A stretch of DNA of 8,566 nt from a virus (taxonomy: Duplodnaviria; Heunggongvirae; Uroviricota; Caudoviricetes). Each line of letters starts with the position of its first letter. Positions within the stretch are counted from its first letter, which is position 1. The notes beneath the pieces were generated by a model that was not told where the DNA came from, did no database searches, and worked only from the letters and a program-made list of their open reading frames with translations. The stretch is taken from the IMG/VR virus record IMGVR_UViG_2671180710_000015, one strand, 5' to 3'. This document shows, piece after piece, positions 1 through 8,566 of this stretch. Both the position numbers and the translations under genes were made by a program.

Positions 1-927
1 TCAGCTTTTCGCCAGAACGGTGACGGCCTTATCGAGTTTTTGCCATCCGCAATAGGTGATTGCCCTGAACGCTGTAGCGTCATTCTGGAAAAGGCTAACC
101 GTCCCTGATTCGGTTTTTATTACCGCCTCATCAGTTGGGGTTATAACCGTGGCTTCAACGTTAATAATCAGCTTTTGAGCGTCTATCAGCATCATGCGAT
201 CCGCCTGTTCGCTCACAATTACCGGTATTCTCAAAAGCTCTATCTGCCAGAACTCAGCATCAGTAAGCTGTAAGGCGTTTTCTACGGGCAAGATTAGCGA
301 CGACGTGGCAAGCGTGTTACCGTTCGCTATGTGCTTTTTGAAAAGCTCTATGAAGTTTTCGGCCTCATCAGCACCATTAAGCACGCCCTCAGGGGATACG
401 CCCGCCACCTCCTGGTCACTGGAAAGAAATTTTTTATCTATTTCTTTCACCGATTCCGATGTGATCAAGTCTCTGATCGCTGAATTGGCACCAGGGGTGC
501 TAAATTTGATTAGCTCGTTATTCAGCATCACAATAGCGCCAAGTTTGCACAGTTTTAGCGCACTTTCGTTTACTTCTCCCTCTTTGACAGGGATTTCTTC
601 GGCTTCTTTAAGCCATTTACTACCCTTGCCTGATATTGACTGCAATTTTGCGCCAAACGGAAGATTCAGCGCGCTGCTGATTAGCTTGCCTGGTACAGAC
701 TGCGAAAAAATATACTCGCCAAGCTCTCTTACTATCGGCTCTGCCACCAGCGACGGCATATTATCCGTAGTCATTCCGGCAACAATGGATTTTTCAAGAA
801 ATTTCGATACTGCCGGATCATTTTTTTTCGTCATTTCAATTGCGTCTGCATGGCTGAATTTACACGATGTAAGCACGCTGGCGGCGCGAACTGCCGACAC
901 GCCTTTCATGTTTTTAGAAATCATCAT
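1..927 (-). CDS. HK97-fold major capsid protein (satellite-encoded)
   Basis: Complete 308-aa ORF (ATG 925-927, stop at 1-3). Strong SD AGGAGG about 6 nt upstream. Blocks KLGAIVMLNNELIKFS, FLSSDQEVAGVSPEGVL and the C-terminal IPVIVSEQ...LFQNDATAFRAITYCGW resemble conserved blocks of HK97-type capsid proteins as I remember them. No N-terminal delta domain. Confidence 0.65.
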   Translation of the reverse strand: MMISKNMKGVSAVRAASVLTSCKFSHADAIEMTKKNDPAVSKFLEKSIVAGMTTDNMPSLVAEPIVRELGEYIFSQSVPGKLISSALNLPFGAKLQSISGKGSKWLKEAEEIPVKEGEVNESALKLCKLGAIVMLNNELIKFSTPGANSAIRDLITSESVKEIDKKFLSSDQEVAGVSPEGVLNGADEAENFIELFKKHIANGNTLATSSLILPVENALQLTDAEFWQIELLRIPVIVSEQADRMMLIDAQKLIINVEATVITPTDEAVIKTESGTVSLFQNDATAFRAITYCGWQKLDKAVTVLAKS

Positions 928-1075
928 CTTCTTCCTCCTGGTAACATGGGGTTAGGGTTTCGTGAAAATATGGCATCAGAACAGCGGCAGCCTGTAACCG
1001 TATTTCGGTTGGCTGCTGCTTGTCGTTCATGATTTCCGTGAGTACATCAATAGGGTCTGTGATGTATTCGCTCAT
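914..1075 (-). CDS. small acidic-tailed hypothetical protein (53 aa), below ORF-track size cutoff
   Basis: Hand-translated: MSEYITDPIDVLTEIMNDKQQPTEIRLQAAAVLMPYFHETLTPCYQEEEDDDF. ATG at 1073-1075 sits 11 nt after the terS stop with a GAGGT SD; its 3' end overlaps the capsid start in another frame. Confidence 0.4.
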   Translation of the reverse strand: MSEYITDPIDVLTEIMNDKQQPTEIRLQAAAVLMPYFHETLTPCYQEEEDDDF

Positions 1076-1086
1076 AGTTCGCTACC

Positions 1087-1575
1087 TCAGTGTTTTAAGC
1101 CAGTTGGTGGCTTAGGGATGGGGAACCGATTTGAGGAGACATTAGCGGCATTGAGTTTTTTAACCTCTTTTTTCCCAATGCTGCCGATCTTGCGGTGGGT
1201 GAACTGGGCCAGCTTAAACGCGGCATCTAAAGCCAGTTTTGGATCTGTGTCCATGTTGTCAATCAGTATCCTGCCCATTGCTTTGATGGGGTCGGGTAGG
1301 CCGTTATCCATCATCTCAATGGTGTTAATTGATGCCCGTTCCGGTGTAACTTTTTCGGTAACTTTCTTTGTAACTTTTTTCGGTTTTGTAACCTGAAAAG
1401 TTACATCAGAAGTTACAGCCTTAAGATACTTTTTCACCTCCGGATCATTGGATAGCTGCCAGCCTTTAACCCTTGCAGTCTTTTCGCTGTATCCCGCATG
1501 TATCGCGGCTTCCGTTGGATTTGTGCCCTTTGATAACGCATCAGCAAACCGCTTTTTTTTGGTCGTTAATGCCAT
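1087..1575 (-). CDS. terS: terminase small subunit (P27/Terminase_2-like HTH N-terminus)
   Basis: From the internal Met: MALTTKKKRFADALSKGTNPTEAAIHAGYSEKTARVKGWQLSNDPEVKKYL matches the remembered TerS N-terminal pattern (K..F...L..GN.T.AAI.AGYS.KTA). GAGG SD about 9 nt upstream of ATG 1573-1575. The track ORF extends to 1692 across repeats and a homopolymer tract, so that extension is probably not translated. Confidence 0.8.
   Translation of the reverse strand: MALTTKKKRFADALSKGTNPTEAAIHAGYSEKTARVKGWQLSNDPEVKKYLKAVTSDVTFQVTKPKKVTKKVTEKVTPERASINTIEMMDNGLPDPIKAMGRILIDNMDTDPKLALDAAFKLAQFTHRKIGSIGKKEVKKLNAANVSSNRFPIPKPPTGLKH
1346..1416. repeat. phased GTAAC repeat array inside terS (12-bp unit GTAACTTTTTCG-like; six copies, two inverted)
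   Basis: GTAAC at 1346, 1358, 1370 and 1388; inverted GTTAC at 1400 and 1412. Spacing is 12 bp within each triplet. On the coding strand this encodes the KKVT/EKVT peptide repeat of TerS. Confidence 0.7.
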
Positions 1576-2181: not shown

Positions 2182-2454
2182 TTAGCTGTCTGGGTAATTA
2201 CGCCATACTTCATCGCCTGCACCATCTATACCCATTTCAGCATAAGTGCGATCGACTGCCTTTCTCAGGTCTCCGAAGTTATCCGGCGGCTCCGGTGGCT
2301 TCTGTGCCTTCCTGGAACATTCCAGCCGTCGCATCGTAACCTGATACCGTTCCTTGTCTGTCTCCACCAGCTGCATGACTTCACCCCATCGCGCCGCCGC
2401 CCTCCGGTAAAATCCTTTCGCCTCGAGTTCCTCCGCTATGCGGTCATGTACCAT
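2182..2454 (-). CDS. PerC-family-like small transcriptional regulator (about 90 aa)
   Basis: Motif AEELEAKGFYRRAAARWGEVM resembles the remembered PerC/Pch signature. Start chosen at ATG 2452-2454 with a GGGGGTGAGG SD just after the SSB stop; the 126-aa track ORF would overlap SSB by about 100 nt. Confidence 0.5.
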   Translation of the reverse strand: MVHDRIAEELEAKGFYRRAAARWGEVMQLVETDKERYQVTMRRLECSRKAQKPPEPPDNFGDLRKAVDRTYAEMGIDGAGDEVWRNYPDS

Positions 2455-2464
2455 CCTCACCCCC

Positions 2465-2863
2465 TCAGAACGGAATACCATCACCGTAAGGGTCATCGCC
2501 TCCCGCTGGTGGCTGATTACCCTGTGTGCCTGTGGTTTTGCGTCTGTTCCCGCCTCGGGCACTGATTACGCTGTCTGCGATAACCTGCCAGCCCTGCCGC
2601 GTTTCGCCGTTCTGGCCTGTCCACTGGCTTACCTGCATCGTGCCGGATACGCTGGCAACATCGCCTTTTTGATGTTTAGCCAGGAAGTCGGCCTGTTTGC
2701 CAAATGCGATGACCGATAACCATAACGTCGCCTGTCCGTCCTGTGCCTGGCTGCATGGCAAAGATACCGCCATACGCGCCAGCGTCATCGGTGTGCCCTT
2801 GCTGGTCTGTTTTACCTGCGGGTCGTCCACCAGCCGCCCGTAAGCGGCTATCTGTGCCGTCAT
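2465..2863 (-). CDS. ssb: single-stranded DNA-binding protein
   Basis: OB-fold pattern WLSVIAFGKQADFLAKHQKGDVASVSGTMQVSQWTGQNGETRQGW and the diagnostic acidic C-terminal tail DDPYGDGIPF. GGAGAGG SD; ATGA start/stop overlap with the upstream ORF. Confidence 0.9.
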   Translation of the reverse strand: MTAQIAAYGRLVDDPQVKQTSKGTPMTLARMAVSLPCSQAQDGQATLWLSVIAFGKQADFLAKHQKGDVASVSGTMQVSQWTGQNGETRQGWQVIADSVISARGGNRRKTTGTQGNQPPAGGDDPYGDGIPF

Positions 2864-5429: not shown

Positions 5430-5502
5430 AAATTTACCTCTCTATAGTGTTTGTGGTTAGACGCCCTGCATGTGTTCCAGCACTGTGGGGCGTTGTTTTT
5501 TG

Positions 5503-5547
5503 GTGCAAGTCACCTTGAAATCTAGGTTACTTTTAGGTGACTTGCAC
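5503..5547. promoter_or_regulatory. paired operator-like sites: 12-bp perfect inverted repeat GTGCAAGTCACC-N21-GGTGACTTGCAC
   Basis: Arms at 5503-5514 and 5536-5547 are exact reverse complements. Each arm is itself GGTG-N5-CACC-like. Located in the divergent region between the rep operon and the plus-strand RHH gene. Confidence 0.45.
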
Positions 5548-5574
5548 TTCAAGTCTTTTTTTATTTTTTTTTCT
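5539..5574 (+). terminator. terminator-like hairpin plus long T-tract (alternatively an UP element or insulator)
   Basis: GACTTG-cactt-CAAGTC (5539-5555) followed by T8-A-T10 (5556-5574). It overlaps the right operator arm and sits just upstream of a TATACT -10 (5578-5583). Confidence 0.3.
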
Positions 5575-5613
5575 CCGTATACTGAACACCACCTAACAGT
5601 AAGGAGAACAGAG

Positions 5614-5793
5614 ATGCCAACAGGTACAACCAACAACAAGTCACAACAAAAAACTGCTAGAGTACCTCTAGACGTTTTAAGCGAAATGAATTTGGTAAAA
5701 GAAGAAAACGAAACAGACGCACAATTTATCGTTACTGCCATGCGCGGCGAAATCAAACGCCGCCAGCGTCGCAAGGCCAAAGAATCAGAATAA
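5614..5793 (+). CDS. small ribbon-helix-helix-like DNA-binding protein (59 aa)
   Basis: Hand-defined start: AAGGAG SD (5601-5606) 7 nt before ATG 5614. MPTGTTNNKSQQKTARVPLDVLSEMNLVKEENETDAQFIVTAMRGEIKRRQRRKAKESE shows a strand-helix-turn-helix pattern. The 107-aa track ORF is an N-terminal over-extension across the operator and T-tract. Confidence 0.5.
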   Translation: MPTGTTNNKSQQKTARVPLDVLSEMNLVKEENETDAQFIVTAMRGEIKRRQRRKAKESE

Positions 5794-5850
5794 TCACTAT
5801 CAGCGCCGTGGTGTGAGGTACTACGGCGCATTGCTTTACAGGGCAGTACC

Positions 5851-6078
5851 ATGACCAACAACACACTATCACCAATACAAGACACGCAAACGCAAGATGA
5901 TGAAATCATCCGGCAAAGGCAGTCAGAAGCCTGCGCCAGACTTGAGGAAGAACTAACCAGAACAAAAATACCACCACCAGCGCCGCGCTTAGTGCCACCA
6001 GAAAAATTTGCCCTTGAAGATTTTGTCGATAAATACCCACGGCGGCTTAAATCCGGCAAAAACCGACCGCCAGGATGA
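5851..6078 (+). CDS. hypothetical protein (75 aa), acidic N-terminus, Pro-rich basic C-terminus
   Basis: Track ORF. Weak SD; preceded by hairpin GCGCCGT-N13-ACGGCGC (5803-5829) and followed by hairpin GAAACGG-attatt-CCGTTTC (6098-6117). No family recognised. Confidence 0.4.
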   Translation: MTNNTLSPIQDTQTQDDEIIRQRQSEACARLEEELTRTKIPPPAPRLVPPEKFALEDFVDKYPRRLKSGKNRPPG

Positions 6079-6297
6079 GTGCACAAAACCGAACTATGAA
6101 ACGGATTATTCCGTTTCCGGGGCGTTTGTGTGTGTATAAAGAGTAAGCTATGCTCTTTTATAGCCATAATCGTTACCTCAATTAATGGTTTGGTTAGAAG
6201 CCCGTTGGTGTTCATAGCGCCAGCGGGCTTTGCTTTTTGTGTTGATTGTGTGTAATATGTCACTACACATAAATACATTACATGAGGTGTAATTAAC

Positions 6298-6477
6298 ATG
6301 TCAATACACAAAAACGAAAGGCGTGGTAATCCTCCGTTCCAGTTCCGTTTAGATCCTGACTTACGGGAAAAGATGGAAAAGGCACAACAACATGACGGCG
6401 ATGATTCTCTTGCTGCCTGGATAAAGCGAATAATCCGCAAAGAATTACAGCAACGCGGCATAGAACCCAAAGGGTAA
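6298..6477 (+). CDS. Arc/MetJ-type ribbon-helix-helix DNA-binding protein (59 aa), below ORF-track cutoff
   Basis: Hand-translated: MSIHKNERRGNPPFQFRLDPDLREKMEKAQQHDGDDSLAAWIKRIIRKELQQRGIEPKG; PFQFRLDP strand plus two helices is the classic Arc-like pattern. GAGGTG SD; candidate promoter TTGCTT-N17-TAATAT (6230-6258); GTGTAAT repeats at 6250 and 6287. Confidence 0.6.
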   Translation: MSIHKNERRGNPPFQFRLDPDLREKMEKAQQHDGDDSLAAWIKRIIRKELQQRGIEPKG

Positions 6478-6565
6478 TTACATTGCCCACCAGCCTGATA
6501 GCGGCTATCATTCCCGTGCTTATGTTTGGGATCACATAAGGCGCAGCAGGTTAATTGTTCACAAG

Positions 6566-6594
6566 GGCGTTCCGGCAACGGGGCGCTTTTTGTT
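6566..6594 (+). terminator. intrinsic terminator (GNRA tetraloop hairpin plus U-run) closing the plus-strand module
   Basis: 9-bp stem GGCGTTCCG / CGGGGCGCT with three G-U wobbles, GCAA loop (6575-6578), then TTTTTGTT. Sits 28 nt from the convergent alpA stop. Confidence 0.5.
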
Positions 6595-6621
6595 ATGTTC
6601 ATCGTGTTATGCCTCACACCA

Positions 6622-6828
6622 TTACGCAGCCGTTCCGCGTGCTTCCTGCTCACGTTCTTTCATCCATGCGATTACGTCTTCCTCATACCATCCGCGACGG
6701 CGTAAACCAACGCGAAAACCCTGCGGAAATTCTCCGGCGTTGATCATGCTTTGAAGCGTGCTGTCTGCCTTGATGTGGATAAGTTTTTTTACTTCCTGGC
6801 GAAAGATGACTTTTTTGATTGCTTCCAT
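6622..6828 (-). CDS. alpA: AlpA-family phage transcriptional regulator
   Basis: 68 aa; STLQSMINAGEFPQGFRVGLRRRGWYEEDVIAWM matches the AlpA HTH family pattern. AAGG SD. Co-directional with int as in Gram-negative PICIs. Confidence 0.85.
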   Translation of the reverse strand: MEAIKKVIFRQEVKKLIHIKADSTLQSMINAGEFPQGFRVGLRRRGWYEEDVIAWMKEREQEARGTAA

Positions 6829-7324: not shown

Positions 7325-8566
7325 CTAAACGGCTCGGATACCCCTTTTACCACTGGCGAGGGTTACGCCCGTCGCCGCAGCCTCGACAAATTCGCCCCAC
7401 CAGCGCATAAGCACCACGCGTTTTTCTATGTAGTTGCTCCGGTTGTATGCCCGTCTCACTTCGTTAGTGTCGACGTGGGCAAGTGCGGCCTCGATTACGT
7501 CCGGCTCGAATCCTTCCTCGTTCGCTGCTGTACTGAATATGGCGCGTAATCCATGAGACACCAGCACGCCAGCGAACCCCATGCGTCGTAATGCTGCGTT
7601 TGCTGTCTGGCTGTTCATTGGCTGCCGTGGGTCTTTCAGACTCGGGAAAACATAATCGCGGTGGTGGCTGATTGGTTTCATGGCCTCCAGCACCGCCATA
7701 GCCTGACCGGAAAGTGGGATAACGTGATCCCTGCGCATCTTCATGCGTCCGGCGGGTATCGTCCAGCGTTGCGCGTCCAGGTCGATTTCATCCCACCGCG
7801 TTGATGACGCTTCGGCGGGACGGGTTACGGTCAGTAACTGCCATTCAATCAGTAATCTGGTCTGCCGTTCTGTTGCCGATACTGATAAAGCCTGCATAAG
7901 CTCCGGCAACTGTTCGGGGCGGATTGTTGGCATATGTTTTTTTACAGGGGAGGGGAACGCCTTACGCACATTCATAGCCGGATTGGCATCAATCAGCCCA
8001 CTGTTGGCGGCGTAATCCATTACCTCATTAACGCGCTGTAAAACCCGTTTGAGTGTTTCCAGGTTGCCGCGCTCCTTGATGGGGGTAAGCACCTCAACGA
8101 ACCTGCGAGCGGTCAGGGTGTCTATTGGGGTGTTGCCGATGAACGGGAATACATATTTATCCAGCGATCGCCAGATGTCTTTAATCGTGTTGGGGGCCAG
8201 ATTCTGGCTGATTTTCACCTGGTACCATGCCGCCGCCACATTTTCGAACGTGTTCCCTTGTCTTCGGGCCTCTGCCTCTCGTTTTTTCTTCTCATGGCCC
8301 TGCGGGTCAGTTCCGGCACTGATTAACGCTCTGTACTCGCTACGGCGTTTTCTGGCATCAGCCAGGGAAACATCATCAAGCGATCCAAAACTCAGCAATA
8401 TTCTTTTTTTGTCCGATGGCCGGTAGTAGGAAAATCGCCAGAGTTTTGATCCGGACGGTTTGACCAGGAGAAAAAGCCCTCCGCCGTCCTGTAGGGTGTA
8501 TTCCTTTTCCGCTGGTCTGGCTGCTTTGATCTGCACCGTGGTTAATGGGGGTGTTTTTCTCGCCAT
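7325..8566 (-). CDS. int: tyrosine-type site-specific integrase, P4-like
   Basis: 413 aa. N-terminus MARKTPPLTTVQIKAARPAEKEYTLQDGGGLFLLVKPSGSKLWRFSYY matches the P4-integrase arm-binding pattern; C-terminal HGLRAIFSTAA and RRAYNRSNY carry the His/Arg box and catalytic Tyr. ATG is the last codon of the window, so an upstream start cannot be excluded. Confidence 0.9.
   Translation of the reverse strand: MARKTPPLTTVQIKAARPAEKEYTLQDGGGLFLLVKPSGSKLWRFSYYRPSDKKRILLSFGSLDDVSLADARKRRSEYRALISAGTDPQGHEKKKREAEARRQGNTFENVAAAWYQVKISQNLAPNTIKDIWRSLDKYVFPFIGNTPIDTLTARRFVEVLTPIKERGNLETLKRVLQRVNEVMDYAANSGLIDANPAMNVRKAFPSPVKKHMPTIRPEQLPELMQALSVSATERQTRLLIEWQLLTVTRPAEASSTRWDEIDLDAQRWTIPAGRMKMRRDHVIPLSGQAMAVLEAMKPISHHRDYVFPSLKDPRQPMNSQTANAALRRMGFAGVLVSHGLRAIFSTAANEEGFEPDVIEAALAHVDTNEVRRAYNRSNYIEKRVVLMRWWGEFVEAAATGVTLASGKRGIRAV

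Follow-up and report, generated by a model that had tools for sequence, protein, structure and literature searches.

What does a 53-codon open reading frame (ORF) do between the gene for the small terminase subunit (TerS) and a capsid-like gene in a phage satellite? The question is raised by IMG/VR record IMGVR_UViG_2671180710_000015, a stretch of 8,566 nucleotides (nt) that is referred to here, at its full length, as the window and that is a phage-inducible chromosomal island (PICI) of Escherichia coli. The small ORF occupies positions 914 to 1075 of the minus strand. Judged from the ORF listing, the annotation of relatives, substitution patterns and homologs, it encodes a paralog of the TerS core hairpin that has no helix-turn-helix (HTH) DNA-binding domain and carries an acidic tail. 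Our tentative preference is for an accessory subunit that would co-assemble with the TerS that shares its mRNA and favor the use of the helper's large terminase subunit (TerL) by that TerS.

The small ORF is intact. It runs from an ATG at 1075 to 1073 to a TAA at 916 to 914, and its product is MSEYITDPIDVLTEIMNDKQQPTEIRLQAAAVLMPYFHETLTPCYQEEEDDDF. Translation would start 11 nt after the terS stop codon, 9 nt from a GAGG Shine-Dalgarno sequence (1085 to 1088, minus strand) that overlaps the terS stop TGA (1089 to 1087). Codons 46 to 53 (917 to 940, minus strand) encode QEEEDDDF, the end of the acidic tail, and the ORF closes with CAG GAG GAA GAA GAT GAT GAT TTC TAA. Embedded in these last codons are the AGGAGG (939 to 934) and the ATG ATG (927 to 922) of the capsid-like gene, which overlaps the small ORF by 14 nt and, from this arrangement, appears to be translationally coupled to it. 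No terminator-like site was found on the minus strand between terS and the capsid-like gene. The coordinates and length given in the initial annotation are thus exact, and the plausible Shine-Dalgarno sequence, the tight packing after terS and the overlap of QEEEDDDF with the capsid start that it described can all be read in the sequence.

Because the window contains 97 ORFs of at least 30 amino acids, a 53-codon ORF is by itself weak evidence for a gene; conservation lifts this one above chance. The same ORF is annotated in every listed row of 220 E. coli genomes, and the Prokaryotic Genome Annotation Pipeline (PGAP)/RefSeq carries it as a "hypothetical protein" in all relatives inspected (e.g., WP_000006073.1). 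It was therefore hidden, as the initial annotation put it, only from the ORF track on which that annotation relied. Between the two main E. coli allele groups, the ratio of nonsynonymous to synonymous substitution rates (dN/dS) was 0.13 to 0.22, and 9 of the 14 variable sites were third codon positions. Purifying selection acts on the small ORF. Recognizable homologs were present in Hafnia, Salmonella, Pseudomonas and Paraburkholderia, so that conservation of the reading frame in relatives, proposed earlier as a check, extends well beyond E. coli. Frame disruption in close relatives, which had been named as evidence against the gene, was seen in phage copies only (an amber codon in a Hafnia prophage) and in no satellite copy examined.

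The origin of the protein became visible with profiles only. With BLASTP, the small ORF and the adjacent TerS showed no match, and a word-indexed protein search with the single sequence returned only relatives that were at least 75% identical. The family emerged by an exhaustive HMMER search of 1.84 billion representatives, which yielded 34 matches; a profile search of a larger collection yielded 174. Its stand-alone members form about 57 clusters of 48 to 68 amino acids without a Pfam domain or an informative name. No match to the small ORF was found in Pfam, NCBIfam or PADLOC, a literature search found no description of the small-protein family, and a 2022 review of TerS makes no mention of an accessory or paralogous subunit. 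Common to all members is a helix-turn-helix hairpin (DPxDfLLxvMND-7-RlEAAxaLMPYFH), the 32-residue core consensus being DP.dfLlavMND.......RleAA.aLMPYFH. In the window protein, the hairpin corresponds to codons 8 to 36 (968 to 1054, minus strand), bears the motif DPIDVLTEIMND......IRLQAAAVLMPYFH and is predicted to fold as a helix (residues 8 to 16), a turn and a second helix (residues 23 to 36). The AlphaFold2 (AF2) model of the small protein reached predicted local distance difference test (pLDDT) values of 94 to 95 over residues 11 to 30. Residues 37 to 53 had no predicted secondary structure, and the mean pLDDT of residues 41 to 53 was 59.

The small ORF matched positions 89 to 126 of phrog_641 ("terminase small subunit") with an E value of 8e-7, and the adjacent terS matches positions 1 to 155 of the same profile. 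When the small family was compared with an alignment of 16 TerS proteins by hhalign, the match had a probability of 98.2% and an E value of 4e-14, with residues 87 to 134 of the window TerS being aligned. The best PDB sequence match of the family was TerS 7JOQ (residues 81 to 101, E value of 0.027). A Foldseek search of the PDB with the 53-residue model gave nothing significant, and TerS 7JOQ ranked first (E value of 2.6). On the strength of the profile comparisons, the small protein is identified as a homolog of the hairpin that follows the HTH domain and linker in SF6/PaP3-type TerS. Three features of TerS were looked for in it. The HTH DNA-binding domain is absent, the central hairpin is present by sequence homology, and the basic GKKE...RFxxPPP tail, presumed to bind TerL, is absent, the tail of the small protein being acidic.

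The window TerS itself is a 162-residue protein (1087 to 1575, minus strand) with an SF6 G1P-type HTH, a disordered KVT-repeat linker, a diverged hairpin (...LAQFTH) and a basic GKKE tail. Its AF2 model shows the HTH domain, the disordered linker (residues 57 to 84) and the hairpin (residues 96 to 126), whose geometry matches that predicted for the small protein. In TerS of PaP3/NV1, an alpha4-alpha5 hairpin (residues 64 to 105) together with a beta-strand makes up the nonamer oligomerization core, which is followed by an acidic tail (PMC7672466). We infer that the hairpin of the small protein corresponds to this ring-forming element of TerS; if so, the small-terminase ring is where the small protein would act.

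The acidic tail, singled out in the initial annotation, proved to be a genuine family trait. It is net acidic in 53 of the 57 stand-alone homologs, including members without an overlapping downstream gene, and beyond the core the net charge averages -5 over 55 family members versus +0.8 in canonical TerS. Its length is 6 to 17 residues in nearly all members and 25 at the maximum, the window protein having 16. As the tail is kept in Pseudomonas satellites and in phages where no gene overlaps it, the tail in E. coli is not a mere by-product of the ribosome binding site (RBS) of the capsid-like gene. Several HEAT-repeat proteins (P0009 and others) also gave good scores, which were judged to reflect hairpin-repeat resemblance rather than homology. 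P0021 (268 amino acids) and P0032 (188 amino acids) contain two hairpin motifs each and a basic GRQxGTPNK-type N terminus; these two proteins may have arisen naturally by fusion of the small partner to a TerS-like protein.

Genomic context, too, links the small gene to terS. All stand-alone homologs with upstream DNA available lie 0 to 27 nt downstream of terS. The spacer is 0 nt in Pseudomonas (the stop codon followed by ATG), 10, 11 or 12 nt in enteric elements (10 to 12 nt in Hafnia, Salmonella and loci L039 and L041) and 8, 18 and 27 nt, as called, in loci L044, L042 and L043, respectively. With such spacers, the frame relation between terS and the small gene is not conserved, and a fusion with TerS by read-through or frameshifting was rejected. 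In phages, namely, Pseudomonas-type viral contigs and one enteric phage, the order is HNH, terS, small gene, terL, portal, protease and capsid, so the gene is not satellite specific. PICIs of E. coli, Hafnia and Salmonella have the order terS, small gene and capsid-like gene, with the small gene overlapping the capsid-like start. Satellites of Pseudomonas and Paraburkholderia have an integrase, a capsid gene, a small gene, terS and the small partner, followed by defense-like cargo. The fixed partner of the small gene is terS and not the capsid gene. A tblastn search of isolated phages detected the motif inside TerS genes only and no stand-alone gene, and a DNA similarity search of E. coli genomes did not find a phage module of the terS-small type seen in L039. 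In Salmonella, about 1.7 kb separates the island with terS, small gene and capsid-like gene (L208, 4851 to 7993) from a portal gene and a gene for a phage protease-capsid fusion; the island may have inserted into or next to a prophage of the kind proposed as helper.

To relate the small gene to the hairpin of its neighbor, TerS proteins were scored with a hidden Markov model of the small family, the counts referring to loci and not to independent events. TerS proteins with a small partner scored 16 bits or less in four TerS lineages, one of which has another type of N terminus, whereas partner-less TerS scored 34 to 60 bits in 78 loci of the Pseudomonas-type set and in 5 other loci. This complementarity has exceptions on both sides. 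TerS of Shiga toxin (Stx)-converting phages has a degenerate hairpin without a partner (66 loci), and one phage lineage (L023 and L025) has a canonical TerS plus the small protein. In a sub-branch of that lineage (L026 to L029, at about 6096 to 6147), where TerS retains its canonical hairpin, a 1-nt deletion directly after the FH codons has frameshifted the acidic tail to a basic one. Overall, phages often lack the small gene or have a broken copy of it, and satellites almost always have it intact; satellite copies were intact wherever examined, save for one remnant-like E. coli element.

At short range the small protein diverges faster than TerS, identities being 56% versus 93% for the TerS core in the Pseudomonas set and 62% versus 87% for TerS between the Hafnia PICI and phage. 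At deep divergence the order is reversed (42% for the small protein versus 26% for the TerS core). The closest phage TerS proteins in E. coli are those of Stx-converting phages, with 47% identity to the PICI TerS overall and about 79% over the hairpin; their terS and terL share 4 nt, and no small gene intervenes.

Four observations led us to favor, still tentatively, a small protein that partners its own TerS: the coupling to terS, the hairpin complementarity, the proteins with two hairpins and the retention of the gene in pared-down satellites, which keep it even where they have only a few phage-derived packaging or capsid genes. Linkage within 0 to 27 nt, with stop and start codons abutting in Pseudomonas, is a pattern typical of subunits made at a fixed ratio. 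The small protein would be produced from the terS mRNA by coupled translation and would join, through its canonical hairpin, a TerS whose own hairpin has usually diverged. The mixed assembly would have fewer HTH domains and added acidic tails. With about 79% identity over the hairpin between the TerS proteins of the PICI and of a co-resident Stx phage, mixed rings are a plausible problem for the PICI. The partner might shield the PICI TerS from mixing with the near-identical core of the helper TerS, improve capture of the helper TerL, or both; in either case packaging would be biased toward PICI DNA. The packaging-hijack module of the PICI would then comprise the TerS/small protein pair, a cos-like site and the AAAGTTAC repeats described below. 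In enteric PICIs, translation of the small ORF would also bring ribosomes to the capsid-like gene, whose RBS lies inside the tail codons. In a broader and slightly less probable form, the proposal is that two-component small terminases occur in a widespread lineage of HNH-cos phages and satellites, in which a stand-alone copy of the hairpin, by joining its own or a rival TerS, might decide which TerS wins the helper TerL. If this were true, the small protein would be a TerS-derived specificity or interference subunit in phage-satellite conflict that arose by duplication of the TerS core.

Several observations weigh against a partner of TerS. The step from the shared motif to the oligomerization core rests on domain order and a weak PDB match (E value of 0.027 over 21 residues). 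The complementarity is a tally of loci rather than of independent events, and a poison directed at rival TerS predicts the pattern equally well. TerS of the LAQFTH type works alone in the 66 Stx-phage loci, so this lineage can do without a partner for the basic function of TerS. In a Hafnia alvei prophage (L209 and L210, 5486 to 5632, two assemblies), whose TerS is 87% identical to that of the Hafnia PICI, a CAG-to-TAG change places an amber codon at position 20 of the small gene; the gene is intact in the related metagenomic phage L039. In a variant E. coli element (L206, 6001 to 7423, and L207), terS (62% identical) is separated from a capsid-like gene by 11 nt, and the small ORF is missing. 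The element resembles a decayed remnant. Upstream of it are an HsdR-like type I restriction subunit gene and an IS66 fragment, with no integrase or replication gene called, and downstream are secretin and AraC genes. Finally, Mantel tests put the correlation of small-protein distances at about 0.7 for each of the TerS HTH, core and tail, so the core does not stand out.

The poison just mentioned would be Ppi-like, and we consider it unlikely although it is the strongest competitor. A hairpin-only protein would insert into or cap the TerS ring of a rival, whether the helper phage or a competing phage or satellite, and block DNA binding or TerL recruitment, the adjacent TerS being spared through its diverged hairpin. 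A mimic of the TerS core without a DNA-binding domain is a classic dominant-negative design, and the gene adjoins terS in a satellite, as ppi does in Staphylococcus aureus pathogenicity islands (SaPIs) (PMC6739421). Its sporadic distribution, with decay in phages and retention in satellites, the much faster divergence of the small protein than of TerS at short range and the diverged hairpins of partner TerS proteins all fit a poison as well. Other observations do not. Ordinary phages carry the gene directly upstream of terL, and stop-start coupling favors assembly with the adjacent TerS. Stx phages, the candidate helpers, share the LAQFTH hairpin of the PICI TerS, so a poison that matched hairpins could not discriminate between them, and tblastn found no TerS with a canonical hairpin among E. 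coli phages. The lineage of L023 and L025, moreover, holds both a canonical TerS and the small protein. Of the functions proposed in the initial annotation, a satellite factor for helper interference is accordingly weakened by the bona fide phages that carry the pair upstream of terL, while loss in phages and retention in satellites speak for it. The broader suggestion of a packaging role held up insofar as this small, tightly packed gene is linked to packaging by its TerS-hairpin homology and its position next to terS.

An independent terminase accessory is improbable by comparison. The small protein would assemble into a small oligomer apart from the TerS ring and adjust motor assembly or cos cleavage by touching TerL, the HNH protein or the portal with its acidic tail. 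Phages whose cos cleavage depends on HNH do have the gene between terS and terL, and the acidic tail is the defining difference of the family from TerS. In PaP3-type TerS proteins the same core is followed by a C-terminal tail that is acidic (PMC7672466), and in P22 and lambda TerL is bound by C-terminal tails (PMC9611059). Satellites, however, have the small gene without terL or portal genes, and since the cognate TerS tail is basic and proline rich, a TerL-binding acidic tail would be without precedent here. The degenerate hairpins of partner TerS proteins would also be left unexplained.

That the small protein is a scaffold, as the initial annotation had also suggested, or a chaperone or size-redirection cofactor of the PICI capsid-like protein is very unlikely: the overlap with the capsid-like start in E. 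coli, Hafnia and Salmonella and the presence of a capsid homolog in all satellites with the small gene are outweighed by a conserved neighbor that is terS, by a downstream neighbor that varies (capsid-like gene, terL in phages, or cargo in Pseudomonas satellites, whose capsid gene precedes terS) and by homology to TerS and not to any scaffold, and the same two features, neighbor and homology, set it apart from CpmB, Sid and Ccm partners. Equally remote is the absence of any peptide function, the ORF being the leftover of a decaying terS duplicate or a translated leader for the capsid-like gene; derivation from a TerS fragment, the capsid start and Shine-Dalgarno sequence in the tail codons and the broken phage copies are compatible with it, but a dN/dS of about 0.15 to 0.2 and a 32-residue motif and acidic tail kept from E. 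coli to Paraburkholderia, including contexts without an overlapping downstream gene, are not. The DNA mimic of the initial annotation, grouped here, found no support beyond the disordered tail. Its acidic stretch, 6 to 17 residues in nearly all members, seems too short for a known type of mimic, a class with an extended structured acidic array; it lies in a low-confidence region without predicted secondary structure, and the predicted fold speaks neither for nor against mimicry.

The genes and sites around the small ORF complete the picture of the packaging region. The capsid-like gene (1 to 927, minus strand) encodes a 308-residue homolog of HK97-fold major capsid proteins (PF05065, TIGR01554), and its product is 23% identical (E value of 1e-20) to the capsid domain (residues 291 to 633) of a 645-residue Stx-phage head protein, a protease-capsid fusion. 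Its stop codon is at window position 1 (1 to 3). In the closest complete genome (L001, 99% identical DNA; 7955 to 8923), the ORF is annotated with 322 residues and is 46 nt longer, so the C terminus differs between alleles. Upstream of terS, at 1634 to 1700, is a cos-like block (a G-run ... CGATCGCCCTGGACACCGCCCCCC, with G-run and C-run) that is shared with Stx phages; in Stx2a phage 1447, the region between HNH and terS matches it with 79% identity over 67 bp. From this similarity, the block is likely a shared cos (cosN-like) site, and HNH-cos phages such as Stx phages become candidate helpers.

Four AAAGTTAC repeats are located in the terS linker coding region (1346 to 1404), three on the minus strand at 1346 to 1377 and one on the plus strand at 1397 to 1404, and two more on the minus strand just upstream of the terS start (1600 to 1619). 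These six copies, a number that none of 200 shuffles reached, compare with 0.22 expected in the whole window. The linker copies encode the KVT repeats of TerS, and the repeats are candidate TerS-binding sites. The Hafnia PICI and the Hafnia phage have AAAAGTTACAC upstream of terS, and Stx phages have GTTAAC repeats instead. EcCICFT073 follows a logic of "same cosN, different cosB" (PMC6092414, PMC6739421). The window PICI resembles it in sharing a cosN-like block with candidate helpers while the flanking repeats differ.

The remainder of the window supports its assignment as a PICI. On the minus strand, the gene order is integrase, small AlpA-like regulator, DUF4222, AAA_25 helicase, single-stranded DNA-binding protein (SSB), PerC and two small ORFs, followed by the cos-like site, terS, the small ORF and the HK97-fold capsid homolog. 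The integrase is a 413-residue ORF (7325 to 8566), a tyrosine recombinase by annotation in relatives; the Hafnia relative carries Phage_AlpA. By its gene content and the location of its relatives, the window fits the definition of a PICI, which calls for an integrase, an AlpA-type regulator, a replication module, a few phage-derived packaging and capsid genes without terL, portal or tail genes, a size of about 10 kb and a fixed chromosomal site. Relatives are located between clpS and cspD or beside yejO, with replication modules swapped and the terS-small-capsid module the same. This module is present in about 220 of 5,426 complete E. coli genomes (about 4%), and most listed carriers belong to the Shiga-toxin-producing serotypes O157, O111 and O103. 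Such strains also harbor Stx prophages whose TerS is of the same family as the PICI TerS.

Other features of the element were noted. The two small ORFs before the cos-like site, at 1705 to 1866 (53 amino acids, coiled-coil-like) and 1869 to 2063 (64 amino acids) on the minus strand, have comparable pairs in the Hafnia, Salmonella and L041 islands (65/57, 60/56 and 71/56 amino acids, respectively). Just upstream of the 64-residue ORF, a terminator-like hairpin (2175 to 2158) is followed by a promoter-like site (2126 to 2098) on the minus strand, both of them consensus matches only; the pair (2098 to 2175) may mark the start of the packaging operon. The genes for a PerC-family activator and SSB overlap as listed (2182 to 2863, minus strand). 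The true start of PerC is probably downstream, because the PerC Pfam match begins at residue 37, and a PerC carried on a PICI in Shiga-toxin-producing E. coli may prove interesting for regulation. A GTG-started ORF of 398 codons (5457 to 6653, minus strand) has a low-complexity-looking translation, covers what is a region of regulatory and small genes in relatives and is probably spurious. The plus strand carries a gene of the YlcI/YnfO family at 6298 to 6477.

Within the terS-capsid packaging module of this PICI, the small gene is the sole uncharacterized member that is universally retained. Of the ways in which satellites beat the helper for the large terminase, only Rpp, in islands without TerS, and SaPI TerS with Ppi have to our knowledge been worked out, and neither covers Gram-negative PICIs that encode TerS. 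Should the small protein join or poison TerS rings, it would be the first hetero-oligomeric or paralog-regulated small terminase, a handle on packaging specificity in the interplay of Stx phages and satellites, and a compact, transferable component for the design of delivery particles based on PICIs. Were it dispensable, it would still be a new conserved family that annotation pipelines could name.

How the small protein compares with known systems can be stated more closely. It shares the hairpin motif VLEIMNDxxxxxxIRLxAA with the TerS core of the SF6/SPP1 G1P and PaP3/NV1 types (PDB 3ZQP and 7JOQ; Terminase_2, phrog_641), and PaP3 TerS likewise has an acidic tail after the core. It differs from TerS in having no HTH domain or recognizable beta-barrel strand, in its length of 53 amino acids and in being encoded by a separate gene after a complete terS. 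With the HTH absent and the tail different, it is not a TerS by the criteria of that family. The HNH-TerS-TerL modules of HK97-like cos phages, including Stx-converting ones (Sawaravirus), have the same gene order and TerS family as the PICI; they differ in the 4-nt overlap of terS and terL, which has no small gene. RppA to RppC, known from EcCICFT073, are dimeric DNA-binding proteins with six helices and a beta-hairpin that retarget the helper TerS and so replace the need for a PICI TerS (PMC6739421). Both Rpp and the small protein are PICI proteins that work, or would work, through the small terminase to redirect cos packaging. Rpp, however, is larger and binds DNA, whereas the window island has a terS of its own and the small protein is a 53-residue hairpin without a DNA-binding fold. 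On its predicted structure, it is not an Rpp.

Ppi of pac-type SaPIs is described as binding phage TerS and not SaPI TerS and thereby favoring packaging of the island (PMC6739421). Both are small satellite proteins encoded in the packaging operon of an island with its own TerS, and the same outcome, preferential packaging of the island, is expected. The small protein differs in being a TerS paralog that also occurs in phages; we know of no report that Ppi derives from TerS. Whereas a Ppi would be confined to satellites, beside a satellite TerS, the small gene is also found in phages with terL, portal, protease and capsid genes, and to call the small protein a Ppi would be premature. In the way it would work, it is closest to an accessory or regulatory TerS paralog. 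If the two-component reading is true, this paralog and the PICI TerS would be a Gram-negative counterpart of the "two-shot" strategy of SaPI TerS and Ppi.

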